From positions 1 through 40,917 of IMG/VR virus record IMGVR_UViG_3300020043_002142: a stretch of DNA of 40,917 nt, one strand, 5' to 3'. The notes under the pieces are model-generated. The model saw only the letters and a program-made list of their open reading frames with translations. It ran no database searches and was not told the origin of the DNA. Each line of letters begins with the position of its first letter. Within the stretch, counting starts at the first letter, position 1. Positions 2,320 to 40,039 of the stretch are shown one piece after another. Source of the stretch: a virus. Taxonomy: Duplodnaviria > Caudoviricetes. A program made the position numbers and the translations under genes.

Positions 2320-4461
2320 ATGCCATTAAAGAAACTTCAGCAGAAAGCTGGCGTAAACAGAGAAAATACGCGCTACACGTCGGAGAACGGTTACTACGTT
2401 TCCGATAAGATCCGCTTTCGCCAAGGCACACCTGAAAAAATCGGTGGTTGGCAGCGTATTTCTTCTGCTATTTTCCAAGGTGTATGCCGCTCTTTGTGGA
2501 ACTGGGTGACTCTGGGCGGGCAGAATCTGCTGGGTATTGGTACTAACCTAAAGTTTTACATTGAGAACGGTGGACTGTATTACGACGTTACCCCGTTGCG
2601 CTCGGCTGTACAAACTCCTGTAACACTAAACAACCCTTTTGACACTACATCTGGGTCAGACGTTATTAACGTCAATGACACTGCCCACGGTTTACTTACC
2701 GGTGATATTGCTACCTTTTCTGGGGCCGTTGCGGTCGGTGGAATTCCAGCAGAAGTACTTAACACTAACCACACCATAACGTATGTTGGAGCTGACGACT
2801 ACACAATTACCGTATCTACTACGGCATCATCCACTGTGACTGGCGGGGGCGGTGCATCTGTTTCAGCAACATACACAAAGCTTAGCGTTGCACTGACAAA
2901 CCCATTTGCTACGGTCAACGGCTCAACAACTGTCACTGTAACTGACGCAGCTGGTGGCTATACCAATGGTGACTTTGTTACCTTCAGCGGTGCTACAGCT
3001 GTTGGTGGCCTTACTTTAAATGGTGAGTATGAGCTAACCGTAACCGGCACATCTACCACTCAATACACAATTACTGCGGCAAGCCCGGCTACTTCCACTG
3101 CTACGGGCGGTGGGTCTGCTGTGGTTGCTGCTTACCAAATTAACATTGGCGCTCCTTATGCGCTTCCTTTGGTTGGCTGGGGTGCTGGCCCGTGGGGTGC
3201 TGGGCCTTGGGGCGTTGGTGTGGAATCATCTGACCAGATGCGTATTTGGTCACAGGCTAACTTTGGTGAAGACTTACTCTTTGCACCTAACGGTGGTGAG
3301 ATTTACGTCTGGAAAGCAAGCTCTTTGCTGACTTCACGGGGTGTGGCTATTAACAACTTGCCGGGAGCTTCTTCCTGCCCAACGGTTCAGAGTTCTATTC
3401 TGGTGTCTGATGCTTCACGCTTTACGTTTGCGTTTGGCTGTAATGACTATGGAAGCACCATTCAAAACCCCATGTTGATTCGCTGGTCTGACCAAGAGGA
3501 TTACTTGGAATGGTTCCCCTCTGCAACCAATCAGGCTGGTAGCTTACAGCTATCCAAAGGCTCAAAGATTGTTACTGCAATTCAGACCCGGCAGGAGATT
3601 GTTGTGTTTACAGACTCAGCTCTGTATTCGTTGCAGTACCAAGGGCCGCCAGCGGTGTGGGGTTCCCAGTTGTTGGGAGACAACATCTCTATTGCCGGGC
3701 CAAACGCAGCTGCAACCGCCACTGGTGTGGTGTACTGGATGGGCATTGATAAGTTCTACAAATACGACGGTCGGGTGCAGACTCTTAGATGTGATCTGCG
3801 TCAGTATGTTTTCCAAGACATTAACTTGGAGCAACAGGATCAATTCTTTGCCTCTACCAATGAAGGCTTTAACGAGATCTGGTGGTTCTACTGTTCCGCT
3901 GGGTCGTTCACTATTGATAAGTACGTAACATACAACTACTTAGAAGATGTCTGGGCTTACGGCTCAATGGCCCGAACAGCATGGATTGACTCTGCCCTGC
4001 GTAAATACCCAATGGCGGCAACGTATACGTACAACATTGTCTACCACGAACAAGGTAATGATGACAACGAAACCGGTACAACTTTGCCAATTACTGCCGT
4101 TATTGAGACTACCGAGTTTGACATTGATGACGGCGATCACTTTGGGTTTGTCTGGCGTATCCTGCCCGACATTACTTTCCGTGGGTCTGATACATCATCT
4201 CCGCAAGTCACCATGACTTTAATCCCCTTGCAAAACTCTGGATCGGGAGCCAACAGCCCAATCTCTTTGGGTGGCAACTCGGATGCTACGGTAGTACGTA
4301 CAGCCACTGTGCCGATTGAAGAGTTTACGGGTCAGGTTTACGTCAGGGTTCGTGGCCGTCAAATGATTATGAAGGTGGAATCTACCCAGCTTGGGTGCGC
4401 ATGGCAGCTTGGCTCACCCCGTATTGACATCCGTCAAGATGGCCGCAGAGGTAATTCATGA
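2320..4461 (+). CDS. Virion tail/head-closure (P22 gp10-like stabilisation) protein with two inserted beta-rich repeats
   Basis: 713 aa; propeller-like motifs (IRWSDQED, VYWMG, EIWWFY); two copies of LxNPF-T...GD..TFSGA.AVGG...YTIT. Confidence 0.55.
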   Translation: MPLKKLQQKAGVNRENTRYTSENGYYVSDKIRFRQGTPEKIGGWQRISSAIFQGVCRSLWNWVTLGGQNLLGIGTNLKFYIENGGLYYDVTPLRSAVQTPVTLNNPFDTTSGSDVINVNDTAHGLLTGDIATFSGAVAVGGIPAEVLNTNHTITYVGADDYTITVSTTASSTVTGGGGASVSATYTKLSVALTNPFATVNGSTTVTVTDAAGGYTNGDFVTFSGATAVGGLTLNGEYELTVTGTSTTQYTITAASPATSTATGGGSAVVAAYQINIGAPYALPLVGWGAGPWGAGPWGVGVESSDQMRIWSQANFGEDLLFAPNGGEIYVWKASSLLTSRGVAINNLPGASSCPTVQSSILVSDASRFTFAFGCNDYGSTIQNPMLIRWSDQEDYLEWFPSATNQAGSLQLSKGSKIVTAIQTRQEIVVFTDSALYSLQYQGPPAVWGSQLLGDNISIAGPNAAATATGVVYWMGIDKFYKYDGRVQTLRCDLRQYVFQDINLEQQDQFFASTNEGFNEIWWFYCSAGSFTIDKYVTYNYLEDVWAYGSMARTAWIDSALRKYPMAATYTYNIVYHEQGNDDNETGTTLPITAVIETTEFDIDDGDHFGFVWRILPDITFRGSDTSSPQVTMTLIPLQNSGSGANSPISLGGNSDATVVRTATVPIEEFTGQVYVRVRGRQMIMKVESTQLGCAWQLGSPRIDIRQDGRRGNS

Positions 4462-11993: not shown

Positions 11994-14900
11994 ATGGCAA
12001 AAGAATTCTCGTTTGAAGAGGCAATTGGCACACCTAAAGAGGAAAAAGAAAAGAAGTCGTTTTCTTTTCAAGAAGCCGTACAGCAACCAAGTGCTCCTTT
12101 TTCTCTTAAAAACCTAGGTCTTGCTTTCGGCCAAGGATTGACCGGTGCAACGCAAGACATTTCTAGTATTGCCGGTGCAACCAATCCTCTTGCTCAAGGC
12201 TTAGGTAGTTTGCAACAAACTGCTGGTGAGGCAATGACTCCTGAGCGCAGAGCTGAGATTCAACGTCGCCAACAAATTGAGAAAGCCGCAGAAGGCAACA
12301 CTTGGGAAGAGATCAAAGCCAAGCTTGGCGGTGTTGCTGAGGCTCCCCTTATAACAGCAGCAACAGTTGCTGGCGGTGTTGTTCCATACATAGCTGGTAC
12401 GCTTGCAGTCCCAGAGGTTGCTATTCCTGCAATGGTTGCAAGGCTTACCGGCCTTGGCATGTCTGCTAAGGCAGCGCAGAGGGTTGCCTCCGCAGTGCCT
12501 GTTACTGCCGTTGGTGGAGTGATGGGCCTTGGCGGTCAGAAAGCCCAAGACTACGACACAGTCAAACGTGAGTTGCTTGAAAAGGGTGTTAAAGAAGAAG
12601 AAGCGGAAATCCTTGCTCAAAAGGCCGCAGAGTATTCTTTAAAGAATCTTCCTAGACAAGCCGCAGCTGCTGGCGCTGGCGCATTTGAAGGCGCTATTGG
12701 TGCTGAAGGTTTGTTGAGCCGTGCTATTAAGAAGCCTCCTCAAATCCAAGGCAAACCAGTCAATATGCCTGAGCCAACTTGGAAAGAAGCAATTGCAAAA
12801 AGCACTGTTGGCGAAGCTTTGCCTGAAGGCCTTCAATCTGCGGTTGGCACTGCCGGAACGAACGTTGCTCTGACCGAGGCTGGTATCCCCACAGACATTA
12901 CCAAAGGCTTAGTGTCTAGCGCGGTACGCGATACATTAGTTGGCGGCCTCATGGGTACGGCTGTCTCTCCATTGAAAATGAGAGAGCTACGCCAAGAATA
13001 TGTAGCCAACGAAATAGAATCCCAAAGAGAATTTCAAAAGCAGCAGCGCGAAGAAATTGCTGCCGCAAAGAAGCGTTTAGACGATCAATTGGCAATGACC
13101 AAGAACCCTCTTGGATCATTCACTATGGAAGATCTTGGCCCAGACTTAGCCAAGACTGTTGAGCAACACCGTATTGATACAGGTAAGCCAGCACTTACAT
13201 CTTATGCTCTGGATGACATCATTGATGCTCTCCCCGGCGTAGACAAAGCCAAAGAGACAGAGAGTTTAAACGCATTAATTGCAGCCAAATCTGGCTACAC
13301 CAACGAGGTTTACACGCCTGCCCAGCTCATTGAGATTGCTCAGGCTAAGAACGTAGACAGTGCTGCACCTAGCTTTGCTGACTTTCTGTCCAGAACGACC
13401 GGTGTCAGTGATCCAATGCAGATGTCTCAGCCACAGCTTCATGCGGCTATTACGTCCTTAGATAAACTGCCCGGCTTTGCCGCACCGCAGGCTCTGCCTG
13501 AAGGCTCAAACGCCACCCGCTACAGCCCTGAGCAGCTGACAATTGCCATCGACAGTTTAAACGCCAAGATGGATTTGCTTGGCAAAGACGAGCTTGGATT
13601 TAAAGAGGCAGCCCAAACAATAGAAACAGCCACAGGACTTAAGGGTTCTGCGGTTAATGCGTTGGTTAATGATGCCATCCAAAAGGGCGATGTTGCCGCC
13701 AACGAAAACAAAACAATTAGCGTTCCCTCACGCACTATACCTACTGGATACGGCATTTCCGAGGAGTTTGGCGCAGAAGAAGAAGTCGCAGATGCGTATG
13801 ACATCATGCGTGGCGATGAGAAGCTGACCTCCGTGCCAGACCAGAAAGCCGCTGACACTCTCTTAGAGAAGCTGCAAAAGATTACAGAAGCTGACATCAA
13901 GAAAGTTGATGCAGATCTCAAGGCTATTGACGAGAAGACAGCCAAGTCTGAGGACGAACTAAACAGACTGATTGTTGAAGGCAAAGCTAACACTGCGGAA
14001 TACAAGGCCGCAGAGAAGGCTCATCAAGACCTGATGGATGCCTCTATGCCCACCATTGCAGAATTGGTGGCTAAGAAGGAGTCTTATGGTAAACCACTAG
14101 AAGCTGTTCCAACAGGCGTTAAAACAGTCAGGCCTGCGTCTTACATTGTGCGTAGGGGTGATGAGATCCGCACCATTGCACAAGACCGTGCTGCGGCTGA
14201 ACAGGCTATCTTTGAAGAACTATCTGAGGCAGACCTTCAAGACCTTGTAAAGCGGCCTTCGCCCGCGTTACAGCAGCGTGTAAACGCAGAGATCCAGCGC
14301 AGAGCAGCATTGCCGGTTACCGGCGCTCCTGCAACAGCGGTAACGCCTGAGCAACAAGTTAAATTAGATCAACTTAAAGTTGAGCTTCCAGCCCTGCTTA
14401 CCAAGTTTGGTTTGAAGGATGTTGGCCTCAAGATTGTTGATGCAATTGAAGGTGGTGCTGACGGCTCCTACCAAGCCAAGTTAATTCAGATTGCATTAAG
14501 CGCAGAAAACCCTATCACGACCCTGCGTCACGAGGCTATCCACGCTCTGAAAGAGTTAGGCTTCTTTACGCCTCAGCAATGGAAGGCATTGGAGCGTCAG
14601 GCTGAGAAGGAATGGGTACAAAAATACCTGAAGAACGTCAGGGTTGAAGTTGGTGGACAAACAATGTCCCGCTATGACGCTTATTCCAAAGGCGTAAAAG
14701 ATGCAAAAGGCGAGTTCATCCTAAAGCCGCTTAGCGCAGAATCTGTACTGGAAGAAGCTATTGCCGATGCCTTTGCTGACTTTGATGCAAACAAAGCGCC
14801 TCCCGGAATGTTGACTGCATTGTTGAACAAGATGCGCAACTTCTTCACTGCGCTGCGTAATCGTTTAAACGGTGCTGGATTCCAGACATACGAAGACGTG

Positions 14901-17900
14901 TTCGGTAAAGTTGAGAAGGGTCAGCTCAAAGCTACCGCTCCAGAGGTTGAGGTCGAGCAGAAATTTAGCCTTGCACCAGAAGGAATACCTCAAAAGCTTT
15001 GGGATTTGCATAACAAGGCTATGGCCGCTGATGAGGCAGCTAGTACTTGGAATGCTGGCTCTAGAAAAGCTAATGCAACCAAAGCAAGCAATCGTTTAGT
15101 TCGGGCTGTGGATGAATATTTCCCTGATGATTATCAGGCGCAAATGGCAATCATGACCAGAATGAATGAGGAATCCAGTAAGCGCGGAGAAGGCTTCTTT
15201 GGCACTCCAAAATTTAGTTTGGATACTAAAGCTGAAAAACGTCCAGAGACTACTGAATCTAAAAAATCTCTTGTTCGTGCTGCAGTTGAAGGCGAGACAG
15301 AGATCTCCACACGCAATCCACAAGGCGTTAAACGCACTAACGACCCCATCACAGACATGCTGTCAATTGATGAGGCGGCTGTACGTGAGGCCATGAAGGC
15401 CAACCCCGATATGTATAAACGCACCATCCAAGCCATTAAGGGTTATGGATTTGTGCCAAACAATACAGCACCTAACGATGTAATTAATGTGTTTAAACGC
15501 AACATCATTAGCAATTTGCTGTATCTCTATAACAAAGTTCCTGCGGATATTCGTGAGCGCAGTAAGCTTTGGTATGACGGTGCAAACCGTATTGCCACCG
15601 ACATGAGCAAGGAATACAAGGTTTCTATGGAGCAAGTGGCTGGCATCATGGCCGCCATGTCTCCTCAGAAAGACTGGTTCCAAAACGTTTCTATGGCTGA
15701 ACGTGCGTTGGACATCTTGACTGAACAAGGCGGTAAGTCTTGGGATGCCAACATGCTTAAATACGCTGAGAGCTACGTCAAAGAAGCTACCAGCCGCAAG
15801 GAGCGTGAAAAGCGTCAAGCAGCTTTTGACAAGATCAAAGGCGTAGCCCGTGCAAAAACAACTTTAAACGACATGTCGCAAGATGATGCGGCTGCGTTTA
15901 TACGTGCTTATGACGAGGCTTACAACTCCCGTCAATACAGAATTGTCACCCCAGAGGGTGGCTTTGGTGATTACGTTCGTAAGAATGATGGCGAGCCTGC
16001 CACCATGATGTGGTCTACATACGATCCAATCAAGAAGACTGTCAGCATTTTCCGTGATGGAAGTCGCAAAAACATTAGCGAGCAGTTGGGCGAAGAGCAC
16101 AAGATCCGTTCTTTCTACAACAACATTGCCGCTCCCAACAGCGACATTGGTCACGTAACAATTGATACCCACGCAGTTGCCGCAGGCTTGTTTGAGGCTT
16201 TGGCTGGCACAGACCAAGAAGTTATCCACAACTTTGGTGGCACGGGTAAGAACATCAATCTTGGTGTTGGCGGTACATACGGCATCATTGCCGATGCCTA
16301 CCGTGAAGCGGCTCAGCAAAAAGGTGTCCGTGCCCGTGAGATGCAATCCATCACATGGGAAGCTGTTCGTGGCTTGTTTGGTGAGAACATTAAGAGCACC
16401 ATCAAGCCTAAGATCCGTGCAGAGTGGACTAAGTACAAGACTGGTGAGCAATCATTTGATGCCACCCGTGAGAAAGTTATGGAGATTGCCGGTGGAATTG
16501 ACAACCCTGATTGGGTTGGAACTGGCGCTGGAGATTTTGTTGCCGACGGCGGATCAAGCTACGACAAAGCGTTTACACCAGAAGGTGGTGTGCGTCTGCG
16601 TGAAGAGAAGGACATCCGTGAGAAGTTAACCTTCAACCTGTCTGCGGTTACATCATCCATTCCCGGCCTGCGTGAGTTGTACCAACGTGCAATGGGGCGT
16701 GATAAAGAAGCCTACACCGTGCTCCAACGAGTTGCGGAAAGCTCTCTCAAGTTCTTGTTGAGTGGTACAGGTGCAAAGATTAATGTTGAGTACGCCAAGG
16801 GTGTGTATCTGTCAGACCGTGAGCCATCTATTTCTGTTGGAGTTGCATTCTCCGAAAAAGAAATGAGCAATGTGATGGCTGGCTTGGCTAAGTTTGCAGA
16901 AAGCTATAACCAACAACAGATCCATGTGCGCCAAGAGACTGCGCAGAAGTTTGGTCATAACTTTGGCGATGGCTCATACGCCACCGCAGTGTATGAAATT
17001 GACCTCAAAAAATCGTTAAACAACGAAGCTATTTCAAGAGTTATTGACGACAGCGGCCTACAAGGTTTTACAATCACAGATAAAACCCTGACTGCATATT
17101 TTGTAAGGACAGAAGGCAATGAACAAGACAACTTCAAATCTTTCGGAGAGCGGATCAAGCGAGTCCACGAATTGGTGGGAGACAGCTCTAGCCGACCTAG
17201 ACGAACAATTGAACGCCTCTACGTCTACGGAGAAGGATACGGAGCAAGGATCCCGTACAGCGAAGTCGCGTACCCTTCAAGCGACATTCGTACCAAGCAA
17301 GCGAGTGATACAGTAACTCCCAAGCTTATTGCTGAGTACTTAACAAAAGCTCCTGTTACAACGTTTAAACAGAAGCCACTTAGCGCCAAGCAGGTCAAAG
17401 AACAGGAAAAGTTATCTAGGGCATTTGATGCCATGCCTGTTAACGACTTGAAGAATCCGTTGGTCAAACGAGCCTACACTGCGTTGGCAAACTCTCTTAA
17501 AGAGCAATATCAAGTCATGCCTATTAAGGTTGAGTTGATGGAGACCATTGACGAGCCTTACGCCAACAGCGATGCTGTCCGTCGGGATGTGAGTGTAAAC
17601 AACAGATTTAAGGTTTACGCCACTTCTCCTGAGACATTTGGCCCACCCGGTTCAAACTTTAAAAATCATCCGCTGCTTAAAGACTCCGGGCTAAAGGATG
17701 TAAACGGCAAGCCAATGCTGTACAACGACTTGCTCCGTGCAGTCCATGATTACTTTGCCCACAACCTGACTGAGACTCAGTTTGGCCCTAATGGTGAAGC
17801 AGCCGCTTGGCGCAACCACATGTCTATCACGCCTGATCCGTTTGCACGTTGGGCATTGACATCAGAAACCCGTGCGCAAAATGCATGGCAAAACTTCCGT

Positions 17901-20900
17901 CCAGAAGCAAAAGGCTTGAGCCTTATTGAAAGAGGATTTGCAGATCAGAAGGCGGCTTTGCCACCTCTTGAGTTTGTGATGACTGGTGATGCAAAGATTG
18001 ACCAGCCTGTTACCGAGCTGAAGGAAGTGCTAACGCCCGAACAACAGCGTGGCAGTGTTCCAACTACGGCTAAGTACAGCCTGCGCAAGGCTCCAGAAAC
18101 ACCTGAGTTTAAACGCTTCTTTGGCCTCAGTAAGGTTGTCAACGACGACGGCACACCCAAAGTCATGTACCACGGCACTGCCCGGAACATTGATACGTTT
18201 AAACCACGTCAAGCTGGCGCTATTTTCCTGACTGAGAACCCAGAGTTTGCAGGCGAATACGCAGATGTTTCTGCTGAAAACAAAGCCCTTGAGCGTAATC
18301 TTTCTGATTACTCTGCACAGGAATTGGATAAAGCCAAGGTACAAGCCATTGCTGATGTCCGTGCATCCTATGGAAACAACAAAGAATCTGCCGGTCTTAT
18401 CAAAGAGATAAAGTCTGGCAACCCACAGGGTGAGGCTTTAGACTTCCTCAAGCTTGCCGCTGATAAGCTGTTCCCTGAAGCAGGTCAAAACATCATGCCT
18501 GTGTATGTGCGGGCTGAGCGACCATTTGACTACGAGAACCCAGATCATGTTGCTGCGCTTGGTTTAAACGACATAGACACAGAAGATCTTGCCAACAACG
18601 TGGCTAGACTTGAGTCTGACCGTGTCCAAGATGCAATTAGAGCCGCTGGCTTTGATGGTTTCTATATCAAACAGGGCAAGCAAAAGAACCTTGCAGTTTA
18701 TGACCCCGTGCAGATTAAGTCTGCCACAGGCAACGTAGGAACGTTTGACACAACAAATCCTGACATTCGTTACAGTCTGCGTAAGGTTCAAGACGAAGTA
18801 GATTCATTGCCTAACGGTTCGGCTATCAACGCTAGTATCAACAGAATCACTACCGCCCGTGAGCCAGAAGGCTTCTTTGAGCGCATCATTAATGCGTTTA
18901 AACCACAGAGCGTAGACGCGCTGCGCCAGCAATGGCTCAACCGCTACAACCAACTCGGTGTGTATGACAAAGAGCTTGCCAAGCAAATGGGTGGAGCCGC
19001 TCTCCTTGCTGATGCAAGCGCAGAATCTGCCGCTCTGATGTCTGACAATGCCGCCGCCATTGCGTCTATGGCTTGTGGTATCGATGGTAAAGGTGGCATT
19101 CCAGTCTTTAACAACGGCTTTACCACAGTTAGCAGTGCCAATGGTGAGAAGGGTGTCCTTGAGATCCTGATGCCTTTGGCTCAGATTGGTGATCCACGTA
19201 TCTATCAAACCTATCAGTTCTGGGCTGGCGCTAAGCGTGGTAAACGCTTGTTAGCCAATGGTAAAGATCATACTTACACCCCCGCAGAAATTGCTTACGC
19301 AGCGGAGCTGGAGAAGAAGTACCCTGAGTTTAAACAAGTCCAACAAGACTGGATCAAATACAACAACGGGCTGATGAAATACGCAGTGGCTACCGGTGTT
19401 CTTGCTCCAGAAAGAGCCGCAGAGTTCATGAAGTACTCTGACTACATCCCGTTCTATCGTCAGATAGACGGTGAGAACACTGTCGGCCCAAGACTGTTCC
19501 AAAACATCTCAGGAGTTACACCTCCTAAGAAGCTGACAGGTATCAAAGAAGGACAAGAAGCGCCTCTGGCTGACTTCCTAGAGACCATTGTTCGCAACAC
19601 TCAGTCCATCATTCAGTCTGGCATGAAGAACACTGCGGCACAACGTGCCATCGGTGCGGCTGTCCAGTTGAAGACTGCTCAAAAGCGCAATGACGTGTCA
19701 TACGCTCCCGGAGTTGTGACTGTCTTGGAGCGTGGTAAGCCTGTCTCCTACGATGTCTCAGATCAGTTGTTCATTGATGCGGTTAAGAGTTTAAACCTAC
19801 CAGAGTTGCCATTCCTAAGCATCTTCTCTGCGCCAGCCAATCTGCTGAGAAACCTGATCACCAAAGATCCGGGCTTTATGATGGCTAACTTGATGCGTGA
19901 CTCCTTGTCTGCGTGGGTTACCAGCGGCGCAAAGATGACTCCTATCGCCTCTACCATCTCTAACTTTGGCAAGGCCATCGGTGGCAAAGATCCCGCTTAC
20001 CTTGCCCTGCGCAATGCAGGTGTGATCGGTGGTTATGAGTTTGCTCAAGACATCAAAACAAGTGGCTCTGTCTTGGGTGCAAGTCTGCGTAGAGCAACGG
20101 GTACAGAGCAAGGTTCTGAGAAGGCTCTCAAGCCGTTTACAAGCCTCTGGCGTGGCCTAGAAAAGGGCACAGAGGCATCTGATGCCGCTACCCGTATGGC
20201 AGTCTACAAATCAACCTTGGAGCGTACAGGCAACGAGGCAGAAGCTATCTACCGCGCTATGGAAGTCTTGAACTTCAACCGCAAAGGTAACCTTGCCATT
20301 GTTCGTATTCTGACTGCGGCTGTGCCATTCTTGAATGCACGTATGCAGGGCTTGGATGTGTTCTACCGTGCCGCCTTTGGCAAGATGGCTAGTGAAGATG
20401 CGGCTGCAATTCAGCGTTCATTCTTCATCCGTGGTGCAACCCTCATGGCCCTGTCAGCCATGTATTGGTTCCTGACCCATGATGAAGAGGAATACATTAA
20501 CCAAGAGCAAGAGACACGAGACAACAATTGGTTGTTCCCGTCCGTGGGCATTCGGATCCCAATCCCGTTTGAGGTTGGTGTCCTGTTTAAAACAATCCCC
20601 GAGCGTCTGCTTGAGTACTCTTTCGGTAACGACACTGGTAAAGATCTAGCTGACTCTATGAAGCGTAACTTGATCAGCACCTTTGGTATCAACCCAATCC
20701 CGCAGACTTTCTTGCCATTGGTTGAGGCTCGCACCAACTACTCTTTCTTCACAATGAGACCCATTGTTGGACAGGGTATGGAAGGCGTAGCCACTGAGTA
20801 TCAGGTGTCTCCCGGAACTTCTGAGTTGGCTAAGACGGTCGGTAAGTCTATTGGCGAGTCCCCCATCATGGTTGATCACATCATCAAGGGATACACAGGC

Positions 20901-21341
20901 TCAATGGGTATGTACGCAGTTGACTTGATTGATGCGATCCTCCTCGGAAATGATGAGTCACCCAAGGTTGCTAAACGCTTTGAGCAGATGCCTGTCATCA
21001 AGCGATTCACTGTGGACAAAGAAGCCAAGGGAACTGTGACTGCTTACTATGAGCTAAAGAACTCTGTTGATGAGGTTGTGAGAACAGTCAACTTGATGGA
21101 GCGCACTGGTAACGCTGAAGATCTTGGCGCTTACATGGAGAAGAATGCTCAGTTGTTTGGCATGAGAAACTACATAAGTAGCGTAGAGAAACAGATGAAG
21201 GTGATGCGTGAAGCGGCAATCCAGATCCGCTCATCTGATATGTCTCCTGAAGAGAAGAGAGATTCTCTAATGGCTATCACACAGGCTCAGAATGCCATGA
21301 CATCAAGCATTAGAGAACTCAAAAAATCTATTGCACAGTAA
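11994..21341 (+). CDS. Giant polyvalent (likely injected) protein: metallopeptidase, HhH-glycosylase-like, HD-motif, ADP-ribosyltransferase and LPD38-like domains
   Basis: 3115 aa; HEAIH at 14529; WYDG/AAMSPQ/VTIDTH/QSITW; NDLLRAVHDYFAH; MYHGT...IFLT...QIKSATGN; C-terminal NWLFP...IRIPIPFEVGVLFK. Confidence 0.8.
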   Translation: MAKEFSFEEAIGTPKEEKEKKSFSFQEAVQQPSAPFSLKNLGLAFGQGLTGATQDISSIAGATNPLAQGLGSLQQTAGEAMTPERRAEIQRRQQIEKAAEGNTWEEIKAKLGGVAEAPLITAATVAGGVVPYIAGTLAVPEVAIPAMVARLTGLGMSAKAAQRVASAVPVTAVGGVMGLGGQKAQDYDTVKRELLEKGVKEEEAEILAQKAAEYSLKNLPRQAAAAGAGAFEGAIGAEGLLSRAIKKPPQIQGKPVNMPEPTWKEAIAKSTVGEALPEGLQSAVGTAGTNVALTEAGIPTDITKGLVSSAVRDTLVGGLMGTAVSPLKMRELRQEYVANEIESQREFQKQQREEIAAAKKRLDDQLAMTKNPLGSFTMEDLGPDLAKTVEQHRIDTGKPALTSYALDDIIDALPGVDKAKETESLNALIAAKSGYTNEVYTPAQLIEIAQAKNVDSAAPSFADFLSRTTGVSDPMQMSQPQLHAAITSLDKLPGFAAPQALPEGSNATRYSPEQLTIAIDSLNAKMDLLGKDELGFKEAAQTIETATGLKGSAVNALVNDAIQKGDVAANENKTISVPSRTIPTGYGISEEFGAEEEVADAYDIMRGDEKLTSVPDQKAADTLLEKLQKITEADIKKVDADLKAIDEKTAKSEDELNRLIVEGKANTAEYKAAEKAHQDLMDASMPTIAELVAKKESYGKPLEAVPTGVKTVRPASYIVRRGDEIRTIAQDRAAAEQAIFEELSEADLQDLVKRPSPALQQRVNAEIQRRAALPVTGAPATAVTPEQQVKLDQLKVELPALLTKFGLKDVGLKIVDAIEGGADGSYQAKLIQIALSAENPITTLRHEAIHALKELGFFTPQQWKALERQAEKEWVQKYLKNVRVEVGGQTMSRYDAYSKGVKDAKGEFILKPLSAESVLEEAIADAFADFDANKAPPGMLTALLNKMRNFFTALRNRLNGAGFQTYEDVFGKVEKGQLKATAPEVEVEQKFSLAPEGIPQKLWDLHNKAMAADEAASTWNAGSRKANATKASNRLVRAVDEYFPDDYQAQMAIMTRMNEESSKRGEGFFGTPKFSLDTKAEKRPETTESKKSLVRAAVEGETEISTRNPQGVKRTNDPITDMLSIDEAAVREAMKANPDMYKRTIQAIKGYGFVPNNTAPNDVINVFKRNIISNLLYLYNKVPADIRERSKLWYDGANRIATDMSKEYKVSMEQVAGIMAAMSPQKDWFQNVSMAERALDILTEQGGKSWDANMLKYAESYVKEATSRKEREKRQAAFDKIKGVARAKTTLNDMSQDDAAAFIRAYDEAYNSRQYRIVTPEGGFGDYVRKNDGEPATMMWSTYDPIKKTVSIFRDGSRKNISEQLGEEHKIRSFYNNIAAPNSDIGHVTIDTHAVAAGLFEALAGTDQEVIHNFGGTGKNINLGVGGTYGIIADAYREAAQQKGVRAREMQSITWEAVRGLFGENIKSTIKPKIRAEWTKYKTGEQSFDATREKVMEIAGGIDNPDWVGTGAGDFVADGGSSYDKAFTPEGGVRLREEKDIREKLTFNLSAVTSSIPGLRELYQRAMGRDKEAYTVLQRVAESSLKFLLSGTGAKINVEYAKGVYLSDREPSISVGVAFSEKEMSNVMAGLAKFAESYNQQQIHVRQETAQKFGHNFGDGSYATAVYEIDLKKSLNNEAISRVIDDSGLQGFTITDKTLTAYFVRTEGNEQDNFKSFGERIKRVHELVGDSSSRPRRTIERLYVYGEGYGARIPYSEVAYPSSDIRTKQASDTVTPKLIAEYLTKAPVTTFKQKPLSAKQVKEQEKLSRAFDAMPVNDLKNPLVKRAYTALANSLKEQYQVMPIKVELMETIDEPYANSDAVRRDVSVNNRFKVYATSPETFGPPGSNFKNHPLLKDSGLKDVNGKPMLYNDLLRAVHDYFAHNLTETQFGPNGEAAAWRNHMSITPDPFARWALTSETRAQNAWQNFRPEAKGLSLIERGFADQKAALPPLEFVMTGDAKIDQPVTELKEVLTPEQQRGSVPTTAKYSLRKAPETPEFKRFFGLSKVVNDDGTPKVMYHGTARNIDTFKPRQAGAIFLTENPEFAGEYADVSAENKALERNLSDYSAQELDKAKVQAIADVRASYGNNKESAGLIKEIKSGNPQGEALDFLKLAADKLFPEAGQNIMPVYVRAERPFDYENPDHVAALGLNDIDTEDLANNVARLESDRVQDAIRAAGFDGFYIKQGKQKNLAVYDPVQIKSATGNVGTFDTTNPDIRYSLRKVQDEVDSLPNGSAINASINRITTAREPEGFFERIINAFKPQSVDALRQQWLNRYNQLGVYDKELAKQMGGAALLADASAESAALMSDNAAAIASMACGIDGKGGIPVFNNGFTTVSSANGEKGVLEILMPLAQIGDPRIYQTYQFWAGAKRGKRLLANGKDHTYTPAEIAYAAELEKKYPEFKQVQQDWIKYNNGLMKYAVATGVLAPERAAEFMKYSDYIPFYRQIDGENTVGPRLFQNISGVTPPKKLTGIKEGQEAPLADFLETIVRNTQSIIQSGMKNTAAQRAIGAAVQLKTAQKRNDVSYAPGVVTVLERGKPVSYDVSDQLFIDAVKSLNLPELPFLSIFSAPANLLRNLITKDPGFMMANLMRDSLSAWVTSGAKMTPIASTISNFGKAIGGKDPAYLALRNAGVIGGYEFAQDIKTSGSVLGASLRRATGTEQGSEKALKPFTSLWRGLEKGTEASDAATRMAVYKSTLERTGNEAEAIYRAMEVLNFNRKGNLAIVRILTAAVPFLNARMQGLDVFYRAAFGKMASEDAAAIQRSFFIRGATLMALSAMYWFLTHDEEEYINQEQETRDNNWLFPSVGIRIPIPFEVGVLFKTIPERLLEYSFGNDTGKDLADSMKRNLISTFGINPIPQTFLPLVEARTNYSFFTMRPIVGQGMEGVATEYQVSPGTSELAKTVGKSIGESPIMVDHIIKGYTGSMGMYAVDLIDAILLGNDESPKVAKRFEQMPVIKRFTVDKEAKGTVTAYYELKNSVDEVVRTVNLMERTGNAEDLGAYMEKNAQLFGMRNYISSVEKQMKVMREAAIQIRSSDMSPEEKRDSLMAITQAQNAMTSSIRELKKSIAQ

Positions 21342-23268: not shown

Positions 23269-23724
23269 TTAAACTCTTAGTTCTTCTTGAGGTCTAGCAC
23301 GTTGTTGTAAGCTCTCGTCCAACTGCAGAATGAGATCCGCTAAATCTGAATCAATTAAATGCAGTTTCTTCGTCCATCGAGCAATTGTTAATTGCAAATC
23401 ATGAACGAATTCTTCTCTTAAAGAGGAGTTGTTCATAACATCGGCCACCATTCTGTAGCCACCACCAGTCTCACGGTCTGACGGCAAACTTACAAATGCT
23501 CTGACATGTGTTGGCTCTGAAGTCAGCACAGTGATCTTACATTTTTGGATCAGATTACGGGCTTGCTCTCTGCGGTATTGAATAGCCGCCTCCGAGTCGT
23601 CCCATTCAAAGTAGGAGTGCAAGATGCTCTCTTCTTTCTTTGCCTCCTCAATCACATCATCAATCATTAACACGCCACCGTTTTGACGTGCCATCTTCTC
23701 TAACAGTTTTCTTTCTTCGTTCAT
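23269..23724 (-). CDS. Partner/accessory protein downstream of the GGN-NN array
   Basis: 151 aa, helical; LHSYFEWDDSEAAIQYRREQARNLI motif; AAGGAG RBS right after the array. Confidence 0.7.
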   Translation of the reverse strand: MNEERKLLEKMARQNGGVLMIDDVIEEAKKEESILHSYFEWDDSEAAIQYRREQARNLIQKCKITVLTSEPTHVRAFVSLPSDRETGGGYRMVADVMNNSSLREEFVHDLQLTIARWTKKLHLIDSDLADLILQLDESLQQRARPQEELRV

Positions 23725-23751
23725 GATTTCTCCTTTTGTTTAAACATAAAT

Positions 23752-24247
23752 GCCTGCCTTGCCTCACCGGAACTCACGTCGCCCCGCCCAACCTTGCCTG
23801 CCCTGCCCTACCACGCTATTCCTAGCCGATCCATGCCTGCCATACCTTGCCAGCCCCATCTAGACCAAAACGAGCCTTGCCCCGCCTGCCTAACCATGCT
23901 CACCGCGCCATACCCGTCCAGTCCATGCCTCGCCTGCCAATCCTTTCCTTGCCAGACCCTGTCTCACCTTGCGAGTCCATGCCTGCCGAACCAAACCAAG
24001 CCACTCCATACCTAGCCCTTCCCCGCCGAGCCACGCCTGCCGTGCTAAACCGATCCTGACCGCTCCGAGCCGCGCCTATCCATGCCTGCCATACCTATCC
24101 CCACCGTGCCCCACCTATCCCGTCCATGCCTGCCCATGCCTGCCATACCTTGCCGTGCCGTACCGGAACAGGCCATGCCTTGCCACGCCACACCTGCCAT
24201 GCCAGACCGGACTGCTCCAAGCCCCGCCCATCCGGGCCTAGCCTGCC
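23752..24247 (-). ncRNA. Putative guide-RNA array (VIPR-like): ten 39-54 nt units of GGCAGGC followed by alternating NN and GGN
   Basis: On +, gcctgcc starts at 23752, 23796, 23835, 23884, 23932, 23981, 24035, 24084, 24128, 24138, 24192 (acctgcc) and 24241, with near-strict 5-nt periodicity between them. Confidence 0.8.
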
Positions 24248-24259
24248 TAGGTTTAAACG

Positions 24260-24922
24260 TCACTCAATGCCAAACTTGGCCCTGATTGCGCTTTCTCGGT
24301 CGCTCTCTACTACTTGGAACAAACCAAACCCACATCCGGCACTAGCCTTACTGTCGGGTCTGCCTGCTCCAATACCAACTTGCAAGCCGCAACGGCTAAT
24401 CAAGTTAATTACATCCACAGTTTTAAACTGATCCATATCAAAACGGATACGTAGTTTTACTGCCCACTCTTTATACATAGGACGTGAACGAACATCCACC
24501 ACGCCAGTAGCGTTACGGGTGTGTGCGGTGTATGTATCGCTCTTTCCATAGACACGAACCAATGGGATGCCATCCTGTTGATCCCAGCCGTCAGCCTCTA
24601 CAAACGTTGACAGCTTAGCCAACGTCATCTTGAAGCCAACCAGACGACACGCAGAAATCATCGCAGCGCGAAACGATGCAGCGTTTACACCCTCCCATCC
24701 CTGCATACTGCGGTAACGCGCATCTTCTGCTTCTTTTTCGTAGTCCCGTGCATCACGAACCTTTTTACTGTTTGCAGACTTACCCTCTTGCATCTTTGCC
24801 ATCAGTTCCGCTTTCTTGCTGAAGCGTTCTACAACCAATGGAGCAATACCTTCTAGGTACACATCCACAGTTGCAAACTTAGGGGGTGAAATTACGTATG
24901 TTGTTTCAATTTCTTTAGCCAT
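24260..24922 (-). CDS. RAMP/Cas7-like RNA-binding protein (Vipr-like effector)
   Basis: N-terminal strand VYLEGIAPLVV, helix AASFRAAMISAC, RPMYKEW, and a C-terminal Gly-rich loop GIGAGRP...GCGFGLF; abuts the array. Confidence 0.75.
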   Translation of the reverse strand: MAKEIETTYVISPPKFATVDVYLEGIAPLVVERFSKKAELMAKMQEGKSANSKKVRDARDYEKEAEDARYRSMQGWEGVNAASFRAAMISACRLVGFKMTLAKLSTFVEADGWDQQDGIPLVRVYGKSDTYTAHTRNATGVVDVRSRPMYKEWAVKLRIRFDMDQFKTVDVINLISRCGLQVGIGAGRPDSKASAGCGFGLFQVVESDRESAIRAKFGIE

Positions 24923-34920: not shown

Positions 34921-35577
34921 TCATGCGGCAAGCTTGAGCTTGTTGAATGCGACAGTGCCCATGTCAGCGAGGTTGTCAACCCTCACTGCATTGGGGTAGA
35001 CACGGGAGACATTCTCTTGAATGCCGATCCCGATTGTTGTGATGCCAAGGCGTGAGCCTGAGTTGCATTGGTCGCGGGTGGCGTTGGGCGAACCCTCACC
35101 ATCGGTCAGGACGAAGCAGACCTTGCGCTCCTCTGTCCTACGTAGCAACAGGCCGTGAGCATAGTTCAGGGCGGCATAGTCGTTCGTGCCTCCACTGCAC
35201 ACGACACGCTCAAGCAGGGGCTTGACACGCTGATAGGGCGCGTTCCAAGGCTTGAGTGTAGACACCACATTGGAGAACGTCACAACACTGGTGTGCACCC
35301 CTGCTTGGCTGAGTGTGGTCAGCAGGGCGTAGCAGACATCAACGGCATGTTGCATACGATTCTCAGATTGCATCGAGCCTGAGCAGTCGAGCACGATCGT
35401 CACGGCTGAGTCAATACCTGCAACCTCAGTCCTGCGTTTAAACAGGCGGTCACTGTGCCCGATGTGGGGCAAGGCGTTGACATTGAGCGAGCCTTGCTTG
35501 CGGTTGATGTTGAACTCCTCAGTGCCTGAATTCTCAAACAGTCTGCGAATCTCATAGCGAAGTTTTGCGGGAATCAT
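34921..35577 (-). CDS. VWA-domain protein (CobT C-terminal-like)
   Basis: MIDAS motifs DCSGS, GGT and LTDG; TAAGGAG RBS before MIPAKL. Confidence 0.8.
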   Translation of the reverse strand: MIPAKLRYEIRRLFENSGTEEFNINRKQGSLNVNALPHIGHSDRLFKRRTEVAGIDSAVTIVLDCSGSMQSENRMQHAVDVCYALLTTLSQAGVHTSVVTFSNVVSTLKPWNAPYQRVKPLLERVVCSGGTNDYAALNYAHGLLLRRTEERKVCFVLTDGEGSPNATRDQCNSGSRLGITTIGIGIQENVSRVYPNAVRVDNLADMGTVAFNKLKLAA

Positions 35578-35587
35578 TGTGTGCTCC

Positions 35588-36586
35588 TTAGCAGTTGACA
35601 GTCCATTGTTTCTTATCGCTAACGTGGTATTCGTTAGCACCCATGCACCACTCACCAGTCGCGCCCCCTGCACGTGCAGTCTCGGGCACGTTGACGGTTG
35701 GCTCAGTAGAACGGGGCACAACCACAACGCGAACCTTGCCGCCATTAGGATGAGCCTTGGTGCGCTTAACGGGGGTCTTGGCATCCCCTACCTCATCGCC
35801 CTCTTTTGCGGGGCTTGTAGGGGGCTTCTCGCCCTTTGTAGGGGCATCCTTATTGCCTCCCTCCTGATCGGATGGATCACCATCATCGCAGGGGTTGCCG
35901 TCATCACTGCCTGTTGGGGGTTCAGGGTTGACGGGAGGAGGCTCAGGATTGACAGGGGGCTGAGGGGGTTGGATCTTGCACAATTGCTCAAAGACCCACT
36001 CGGCAAGCACCCATGTATCGGCAGTGTGTTGGCATGTGTTTAAACGTTTGCAAGCTTCATCAAAGATGGGCTTCAAGCCGTTAGCCAATGGCACTTTGAT
36101 TGTGCCGTGCTTGCGAGCATAGACTGCCAACACAAAGGGGTACTGCTTAGGATCTGACCAGTCGCTGACCTCATTGAGACCCTCGGTTGCCATGTTGTCG
36201 ATCAGCGTACCGAGCAAGCTTTCCACGTTGCCCGTCAACTTGCGCTCCACTGCACGGTTCTCAATGAACGCATCCTCCAAGCCGTTGTGCAAATGGATCA
36301 AGTACTCGACTGCATCGCGGTTGATGGCATTGAAGTTGGTGTACTTCCAGTGTAGAAGCTCATGCAGGGCAAAGCCTGTAAAGCGTTCAAGATCACCACG
36401 GGTCAGCACCGCATCGTCTGCGATGTTGGTGATGTAGACGTTACCCTGACGGTCAATAGCCGCAGTGGGAATGTCTGCTTTGAAAAGCACCTTGACACGG
36501 GACAGACCCAAGTCGGATGCGATTTTGTGAATGGCGGCAGTCAAGGCTGACTTGAACTCCCAACCGAAGTATTTTGCTTTAAGCAT
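35588..36586 (-). CDS. CobT N-terminal-like HExxH metalloprotein with acidic/Pro-rich tail
   Basis: LHELLHWKYT, NGLEDAFIE. Confidence 0.7.
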   Translation of the reverse strand: MLKAKYFGWEFKSALTAAIHKIASDLGLSRVKVLFKADIPTAAIDRQGNVYITNIADDAVLTRGDLERFTGFALHELLHWKYTNFNAINRDAVEYLIHLHNGLEDAFIENRAVERKLTGNVESLLGTLIDNMATEGLNEVSDWSDPKQYPFVLAVYARKHGTIKVPLANGLKPIFDEACKRLNTCQHTADTWVLAEWVFEQLCKIQPPQPPVNPEPPPVNPEPPTGSDDGNPCDDGDPSDQEGGNKDAPTKGEKPPTSPAKEGDEVGDAKTPVKRTKAHPNGGKVRVVVVPRSTEPTVNVPETARAGGATGEWCMGANEYHVSDKKQWTVNC

Positions 36587-36596
36587 TTTGCTCTCC

Positions 36597-38018
36597 TTAT
36601 AGCCACGACTTGATGTCGTTTTGATTGATGTATGCGGCCTTGATCACGTCAAGAGCGGCACGGGACTCAGCGGGTTGCCGAGAGGTTATTGCAGACTCCC
36701 AAGCCTCATCGACACTCAGCATGTTTAAACTGCGAATGAATGCGAGGGCGGAGCGGATCGATGGGGCATCGATGATGTCACCACTGTCAACCTTTGCACG
36801 GGCGGCATTGATGGCATCCACTACGTGACAGGCCAAGGCTTGATGGCAACCAGTGTGTCTCACCAGTGCTTCAACCTCTTGGTCACGGGGTAGGTATTCA
36901 AACTTGACGACACGGGCAAAGCGGTCAGCAAGTGATGAATTCATTTGGCGAGTGCCTGAGTAACGTCCCGAGGCATCACCGTTGGTCAGCGTGTTGTCAG
37001 CGGCAAAGACCAACACACCCTGCGCTCTGCGGTGCACTTGGCCTCCAAAGTTGACGGCACTGTTAGGCTCGAGAAAACCGTTCAGGGTAGCAAGCTCACC
37101 CGCATCACAGTTGGAGATCTCATCGAGCAAAACGATGGTTGACGGAGTGGTGAACGCGGTCAGGAAAGCACCACGTTTAAACACTGTCGCACCGTTCTCA
37201 AGGCCAACCGCACCCGCGTAATCCTCGGTGGTTGTGTACTTGTGGAAGTTGATGCGGGTGAATGAGCGGCCTGTGCGAGCGGCAAACTGCTTGGCGGTCT
37301 CGCTCTTGCCTGTACCCTTTTCACCTCCGAACCACACGTTGTCGCCTGTCTGTTGGCTGAGCAAGAGGTGCTTCAGGATCGACTCAGACCACACAAAGTT
37401 GGGGTCAATCGCAGGGGCATCGGGTGCATTCCAAATGTCCACGTAGACTTTCATGCCCTGAGAATCGTACAGGTCAACACCGAACACATCGAGGGCAGTC
37501 TTACTGTCAACGATTGTTGCGGCAACAGTGGAGGCCACTGCGGCTTGAGCACCCGCATCGATCACGGCCTGTTTAAACGGGGCAAAAGCCTTGGCAATTG
37601 CAGAGGCCACATCAGCGGCAACCTTTGTGTCATCGACACTGGAAACGGCCTGAGCCTTGGCCATCTGATCGAGGGTGATGCGCATGTTGGACACATCCCC
37701 TGCGATGGCGGCAACCGAGCCGTCAAGGGCGCGGGTAGCATCAAGCCCCTGCAAGGCGTAGGCGTGGGCACGATTGGCAACGGCCTCGATGGCATCAACC
37801 TTGGTGTTGTCCACTGTGGAGGACGACTGAATCACTGGGGTTGCGTTCTGCACCTGAGCGATGGTCAATTTACCTGCATTGATCTGCTCGACAAGCCAAG
37901 TGACACGGTCAAGCTTGGTGTTGAGGTTTGAGGGTGCACCGTGGGCGGTGGTTGCACCGATGATTTTGCCAACGGGGATGGACAACAGTTGGTCACGCAA
38001 AGTTAAAGTCTTGGTCAT
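36597..38018 (-). CDS. CobS/MoxR-type AAA+ ATPase
   Basis: Walker A GEKGTGKS, Walker B LLDE, ADN, Arg finger LADRF. Confidence 0.85.
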   Translation of the reverse strand: MTKTLTLRDQLLSIPVGKIIGATTAHGAPSNLNTKLDRVTWLVEQINAGKLTIAQVQNATPVIQSSSTVDNTKVDAIEAVANRAHAYALQGLDATRALDGSVAAIAGDVSNMRITLDQMAKAQAVSSVDDTKVAADVASAIAKAFAPFKQAVIDAGAQAAVASTVAATIVDSKTALDVFGVDLYDSQGMKVYVDIWNAPDAPAIDPNFVWSESILKHLLLSQQTGDNVWFGGEKGTGKSETAKQFAARTGRSFTRINFHKYTTTEDYAGAVGLENGATVFKRGAFLTAFTTPSTIVLLDEISNCDAGELATLNGFLEPNSAVNFGGQVHRRAQGVLVFAADNTLTNGDASGRYSGTRQMNSSLADRFARVVKFEYLPRDQEVEALVRHTGCHQALACHVVDAINAARAKVDSGDIIDAPSIRSALAFIRSLNMLSVDEAWESAITSRQPAESRAALDVIKAAYINQNDIKSWL

Positions 38019-39688: not shown

Positions 39689-40039
39689 CACCTGCAATAC
39701 TTACTTGAGTAAATTGTGGGGTTATTAAATCGTGATGGTGTGATGGACTCAAGACATTTCTTATTAGTACAGAAGAGTTTCGGTGTTGGACTAAAAGGTA
39801 TTCAATTTGGAGTGAAAGTAATACGTTTCCGAAAAGTATTAAAAAACGCTCAGAACGGCTCAGGTGAGGCGATCGGGAAGGGGTCAAGGGGTAGGGTGCT
39901 TGGAGGGTCAAAAAACGCACTGAGGCCGTTTAAATGCGAAAGCGCCACAGTTTTGGCGTATTACTTTAGCCATGTTCTGTAGTACTTAGGTAATCAAATC
40001 ATGTGTTGTTTTTATGCACTGTATAACAAATGTATAAGC

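Follow-up and report, generated by a model that had tools for sequence, protein, structure and literature searches.

A minimal vipr-array-vap locus

Three features lie in order on the minus strand of the 40,917-nt stretch that we analyzed (the window): vipr (24922-24260), an array of short G-rich units (24247-23752), and vap (23724-23269). They resemble the components of VIPR, a system related to CRISPR that binds DNA under the guidance of RNA and was first described in 2026 (10.64898/2026.04.26.720920). The window is the whole of a virus record from a freshwater phage (Caudoviricetes; IMGVR_UViG_3300020043_002142) with an estimated completeness of 67%. The neighbors of the locus on the minus strand are small early-type genes, and the phage genes in the window include those for holin, endolysin, virion proteins, primase/helicase, Sak, and RusA. 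An earlier note made from the sequence had stated that there was no cas1, and we found none in this 67% complete record. A PD-(D/E)XK gene (28428-27562) with a weak 'CRISPR associated' PHROG match was rejected as a CRISPR gene; it scored far better as a phage exonuclease and is beside Sak. Searches of Pfam, NCBIfam, PADLOC, and Rfam gave no match for vipr, vap, or the array, and a promoter scan at the locus was at chance level. Contigs from RNA runs were pieces of relatives and may be DNA. Elsewhere in the window are a 3115-aa protein of unassigned function with several PHROG matches (11994-21341), a CobS/CobT-like AAA and vWA gene cluster (34921-38018), and a short G-rich tract on the plus strand (39841-39900) that has a weak lag-5 signal and on inspection contained no GGH/NN array.

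The product of vipr (24260..24922, minus strand; 220 aa; phrog_4652) is a RAMP protein homologous to Vipr of phage SUSP1. It is a single-RRM, Cas7/Csm3-like protein that is predicted to bind guides. The AlphaFold model had a pLDDT of 94, and all 31 of the Foldseek matches listed were Class 1 CRISPR complexes (Csm3/Cas7 chains; best E value 1.5e-5), at a TM score of only ~0.4. The sole significant sequence match in the PDB was SUSP1 Vipr (36pp; E values of 0.0035 with the single sequence and 4.6e-7 with a profile), and hhalign of the family profile against SUSP1 Vipr (agp039) gave 95.5% over 172 columns with 22% identity. The RAMP/Cas7-like fold and the resemblance to VIPR, both proposed in the earlier note, were upheld. 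The protein has the RAMP fold with its G-loop and thumb and belongs to the Vipr family; its widespread freshwater clade counts 5102 proteins at E <= 0.001. In the profile alignment, R138 and R179 of SUSP1 Vipr are retained as R147 and R188, H17 is replaced by E32, and D177/W178 are replaced by A186/G187, which are invariant in 59 close homologues. In SUSP1, D177 and W178 read the GG of the triplets; the G-reading carboxylate appears to have been swapped in the window Vipr relative to that of SUSP1.

The array (23752..24247, minus strand) is 496 nt long and consists of ten units without structured tails, followed by a closing GGCAGGC. The units are 49, 54, 54, 49, 54, 49, 48, 49, 39, and 44 nt long, from unit 1 to unit 10. 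Each can be parsed as GGCA plus 7-10 GGH/NN pentamers or, alternatively, as ending in GGCAG, a pentamer that shares its final G with the start of the following unit, with a one-base slip at every GGCAG/GGC junction. GG pairs at a lag of five numbered 74 in the array, compared to 25.5 +/- 4.4 (maximum 41) in 1000 dinucleotide shuffles, and no comparable tract was present elsewhere in the window. The array had no stable fold (folding z = -0.3). These results agree with the 496-nt, same-strand array of ten 39-54-nt units described in the earlier note, with some corrections. The gap after the vipr stop is 12 nt and not 13; most units begin with GGCAGGC as described, unit 2 with GGCAGGT; lengths differ by multiples of five for nine units, unit 7 being one base short; and GGC/GGU/GGA triplets are the overall pattern, with many degenerate ones (AGC, GTT, CGC, GAC).

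The arrangement was conserved in 63 loci from IMG/VR that encode Vipr relatives 70-100% identical to that of the window. As the earlier note's proposal would have it, homologues also adjoin arrays: a tract of ~220-1170 nt was downstream of vipr in all 63, truncated in one of them where the contig stops, and the order vipr-array-vap was found in 62. For statistics we used 47 distinct intergenic regions, including that of the window, and split units at junction motifs; counts omit units that are not 4 mod 5 long or that have fewer than seven or eight NN. Segments between junctions were 4 mod 5 long in 481 of 554 cases, and 397 of 601 junctions had the motif GGCAGGC. The information content at the five pentamer positions was 1.45, 1.40, 0.53, 0.06, and 0.04 bits (3584 pentamers from 389 distinct units), and the third triplet base was C (54%), T (31%), A (14.5%), or G (0.8%). 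In held-out pentamers of 164 pairs of related units, NN bases differed at 8-10% (73% for random pairs) and the third triplet base at 28% (60% for random pairs). NN bases are thus the best kept of the pentamer positions relative to chance, and selection acts on them.

Several arrays varied in other ways. In a comparison with L001 and L005, the unit next to vipr (24199-24247 in the window) differed at many bases from that of a phage whose Vipr is 99.5% identical, and the other nine were nearly the same. This suggests replacement of units at the 5' end of the array. Two arrays (L043, L044) are ~1.1-1.2 kb with 26 GGCAGG junctions, and L043 has an internal stretch like an array end, as if two arrays had been joined. 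In three loci (L032, L038, L052), vipr is separated from the array by an insert of 200-290 nt, which in L032 contains a small ORF.

The partner gene proposed in the earlier note is vap (23269..23724, minus strand; 151 aa; phrog_15946), which followed the array in 62 of the 63 loci. The N-terminal 72 aa of Vap are weakly winged-helix-like, with VIA Z scores of 4.2-4.5 to ArgR, MecI, and MexR that are at background level, and the C-terminal part forms long helices. Foldseek gave no match for Vap, and a profile comparison found no similarity to Vap1 of SUSP1 (agp038).

Matches of the guides to integrated islands

Guides of this clade matched integrase genes when read by the published rule in which one nucleotide is skipped between NN pairs (10.64898/2026.04.26.720920). 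We combined eight pairs from unit 4 with two pairs from relatives into a 20-base pattern; an exact scan of GTDB gave 43 matches, compared to ~1 expected, and 42 were integrase-like, including records labelled Limnohabitans, Polynucleobacter, and Methylopumilus. With the seed family excluded, the other guides gave 174 matches in GTDB integrases under skip 1, in marked contrast to 12, 13, and 17 under other skips and 5-9 with shuffled guides. Thirty-nine guides, under skip 1 only, accounted for the 174 matches, and 164 of these were antisense with the skipped base at the wobble position.

The enrichment was also found in an independent set of islands. By protein similarity we selected 52 of 80 metagenome loci with an integrase at least 53% identical to that of one island, L114. 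These 52 islands had 677 matches under skip 1, compared to 14, 16, and 12 under other skips and 6-8 with shuffled guides, and 44 of 299 clade guides with at least eight NN had a match. A further 17 regions chosen by their HGGxSTG gene had 80 matches, compared to 11, 5, and 6. Because L114 and ten further islands first came to light through the unit-4 pattern, matches of the unit-4 family there are circular. In L114, matches were obtained for eight of the 42 guides that the closest arrays contain (one being the seed), compared to one per control. Of 182 guide families, 26 had a match and 156 had no target in the islands searched; 41 of 47 arrays contained a matching guide.

The matched sites were conserved in a manner that follows the skip. 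Read bases were ~90% conserved in the targets and skipped bases 55%. The sites are conserved codons throughout. In integrases they belong to the core, the HGFRSTFRDW box, and the catalytic-tyrosine region, and further sites are in a second integrase family, the HGGxSTG gene, primases, and an excisionase-like gene. The seven guide families that match integrases were all antisense and would therefore base-pair to the coding strand; other genes were matched on either strand. In the best matches of 30 guides, the first eight pairs agreed at 95-98% and the last at 62%, and the junction AG of the guides was unmatched in the targets. The 3' end of the unit, where the match is loosest, therefore resembles a handle, in apparent contrast to SUSP1, in which filaments engage from this end.

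We looked for targets in the phages themselves. With 333 guides against the window there was no excess of self-matches under skip 1; the best self-matches of the units covered 67-81% of bases, and one of 13/16 was at the level of control skips. On the masked flanks of VIPR phages there were 16 matches, compared to 15, 26, and 6 for controls, and phage arrays had no guide match under skip 1. The earlier note had supposed that the NN bases encode targets, probably in competing phages or the host. The first part held, the matches being specific to skip 1 (677 versus 12-16); among the targets found there were no rival VIPR phages and no ordinary genes of the host. Sequence matches support satellite-like islands integrated in host chromosomes as the targets found.

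Among the ten window units (all minus strand), two had good targets, three weak ones, and five none. Unit 4 (24042..24090; 9 NN) matched FKECAEAYI/M codons of P4-type tyrosine integrases at 17/18, antisense with a wobble skip. Its first eight pairs were exact in 15 of the 52 metagenome islands and matched at 15/16 in ten more. In IMG/VR its pattern had 23 matches, 22 of them not integrases and one in a P4-type integrase that was also matched by three guides from relatives. Members of the family of unit 1 matched the HGGxSTG gene of islands at its C-terminal codons for RGRKPxGY, unit 1 itself (24199..24247; 9 NN) at only 14/18; the family link is seven NN in common with unit 0 of L005, and guide clustering did not group unit 1. 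Unit 3 (24091..24144; 10 NN) matched IQMRNGTGY codons in a 133-aa gene of L114 at 17/20, and its relatives matched these codons at 18-19/20. Unit 2 (24145..24198; 10 NN) had a weak 17/20 match just past the excisionase-like gene of island L131 and no exact match in IMG/VR. Unit 9 (23803..23841; 7 NN), whose family is kept in 12 arrays, had one weak 14/14 match to a 63-aa ORF near an island and outside its core.

For units 6 (23939..23987; 9 NN) and 10 (23759..23802; 8 NN), no target was found in the islands and regions searched. Unit 5 (23988..24041; 10 NN) was without a target. Its antisense decoding, xxTIYLPET, may resemble what precedes TKNG in the integrases of another family. Its full pattern had no exact match in IMG/VR and, at two mismatches, was in one of 301 genomes, equal to the control; the 30 matches of its core pattern were mostly in one unrelated repeated gene, and one was a TKNG-type integrase (L220). 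Unit 7 (23891..23938; 48 nt, one triplet base missing) had no credible target; many of its 43 matches were in one small zinc-ribbon gene family, in which other guides were not enriched (12 versus 8, 12, and 17). The sense decoding of unit 8 (23842..23890; 9 NN) is a Walker A stretch, GKS-LCLNI, and five of its seven matches were Walker A sites in RecA/DnaB-like genes, with no convergent target.

The islands have a common ~6-kb layout of an integrase, an excisionase-like gene, a variable primase or helicase, and the HGGxSTG gene, followed by cargo. PICI-like satellites are small and carry an integrase, an excisionase/AlpA-like regulator, and a primase or helicase; the islands have this gene set and size. 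The HGGxSTG gene corresponds to NF041373, with three of six tested copies above the cut-off besides weaker ones. The island primase had no relatives in IMG/VR. Four islands (L135-L138) adjoin tRNA-Ser, and two HGGxSTG islands (L254, L258) have a second, ~325-aa integrase family that is matched by other clade guides. The islands sit in Polynucleobacter, Limnohabitans, and their kin. From the matched islands, and from the genome with L114, whose genus sample includes named Polynucleobacter, the phage host is likely a freshwater member of the Burkholderiales. Neither a tyrosine integrase nor an HGGxSTG gene was present in five records of related phages, three of which are at least 90% complete. 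A literature search for HGGxSTG, or for a Polynucleobacter phage satellite with an integrase, found no paper.

Relationship to described VIPR systems

The locus has the hallmarks of VIPR: a minimal vipr and vap locus in a virus, GGY-like/NN pentamers, and natural targets with a 1-nt skip. In the preprint on VIPR (10.64898/2026.04.26.720920), staggered vrRNA arrays are described as having vipr and vap and a pentamer array whose units overlap by 1 nt and have no tails. The window locus shares all of these, the overlap being seen in the 4 mod 5 segments. The text and legends of that preprint, as far as available, give no type number, junction motif, or targets for the staggered kind. Guides here have 7-10 NN, compared to 9-16 repeats in the preprint. 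The 667 systems of the preprint may already include this clade, and another source reports 99 VIPR-like clusters (10.64898/2026.10.21.760802).

The locus shares several properties with the type II VIPR of SUSP1 and differs in others (PDB 36pp; 10.64898/2026.04.26.720927; 10.64898/2026.10.15.759431). The Vipr proteins are homologous (22% over 172 columns), the 1-nt skip falls on wobble bases, and a recombinase of an integrated element is a target. The guides of SUSP1, four in number, stand apart from one another, end in pseudoknots, and use mainly GGT as the triplet, whereas the window has ten abutting units with GGC, GGT, and GGA, and the structured 3' tail of SUSP1 guides is absent. Unlike in SUSP1, the array is between vipr and vap, Vap has no profile match to Vap1, A186/G187 stand for D177/W178, and the target family is different.

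Loci with GGCAGG-jointed pentamer tracts were also present, unannotated, in other phages. Cyanophage Cy-LDV1 (BK059895) has a Vipr 51% identical to that of the window and a homologous vap, with arrays flanking vap on both sides, unlike the window. Mycobacteriophage Donkeykong (NC_051648) has a Vipr 35% identical and a homologous vap, with the tract upstream of vipr, also unlike the window. The search that found such staggered loci (L249:2640-2840 and 3440-3600; L250:1750-1810) in Cy-LDV1, mycobacteriophages, and Gordonia phages matched 31 records by vipr and 33 by vap. Cas7/Csm3 proteins of Class 1 CRISPR share the RAMP fold, G-loop, and thumb; the window locus, unlike those systems, has no repeats and spacers, no Cas1 that we found, and a non-contiguous code.

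Proposed function and alternatives

We consider it very likely that this is a phage VIPR locus of vipr, a staggered array, and vap, that its guides match, with a 1-nt skip, islands resembling satellites in freshwater Burkholderiales, and that they probably silence the integrase and replication genes of these islands during infection. By analogy with SUSP1, the array would be transcribed and the RNA coated by one Vipr protomer per pentamer. The one-base slip at GGCAG/GGC would break the register of the filament and so mark unit ends in place of a tail. In the sequences compared, NN pairs agree with island DNA when one base in three is passed over (in integrases, the wobble base); agreement is close over the first eight pairs and loose at the final one or two. 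By extension from SUSP1, binding would block transcription such that the island could not excise or replicate, and the phage would escape parasitism; Vap probably helps in DNA binding. Several results count against this explanation: A186/G187 stand where SUSP1 has the GG-reading D177/W178; A occupies 14.5% of third triplet positions, a change that is among the perturbations tested in SUSP1; and good targets are limited to two of the ten window units, and matches in the islands searched to 26 of 182 guide families.

A broader proposal is possible, and we put it forward tentatively: that a large freshwater clade deploys tail-less arrays as a battery of many guides with fast turnover, directed at an undescribed family of HGGxSTG satellites in Polynucleobacter and Limnohabitans. 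The units would be cut or parsed at the one-base slip, the GG pocket of the Vipr that reads them would be rewired, integrases would always be targeted via the coding strand, and whole units would be gained and swapped without Cas1.

The islands might instead be temperate elements, or compete in a general way for the resources of the host, without hijacking the virions of this phage; silencing by the VIPR system would then stop their induction or defense cargo. The varied cargo of the islands is consistent with this reading, which we think unlikely given that the gene set and ~6-kb core are like those of phage-inducible islands and that a satellite recombinase is a target in SUSP1 (10.64898/2026.10.15.759431). 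It is more doubtful still that the array acts as a single long RNA that is never cut, with its own Vipr filament on each stretch from one register slip to the next and no need for processing. Rfam searches and folding gave no tail, ribozyme, or structure at the junctions, and the locus has no nuclease gene. However, the legend of Fig. S18 of the preprint terms staggered units 'individual processed vrRNAs' (10.64898/2026.04.26.720920), and the junction heptamer is kept more than a bare slip needs. It is hardly credible that the array is a microsatellite in decay or a coding repeat of low complexity, and that vipr encodes a stray Cas7 or a decoy of the anti-CRISPR kind, despite the degenerate triplets, short ORFs overlapping the tract, and the low TM score, since segments of 4 mod 5 break any reading frame, NN bases are conserved above triplets between related units, and the skip-1-specific targets refute it.

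The VIPR principle itself is already published. The window contains a real staggered VIPR locus with unusually well supported natural targets. The staggered kind thereby gains concrete targets, and the role of VIPR in conflicts between phages and satellites is extended from one phage of E. coli to a widespread freshwater clade. The guides point to an island family for which our literature search found no paper, and guides alone predict the hosts of uncultured phages. If it works as predicted, the array, which packs ten guides of 39-54 nt without tails into 496 nt, would make a compact repressor for multiplex use.
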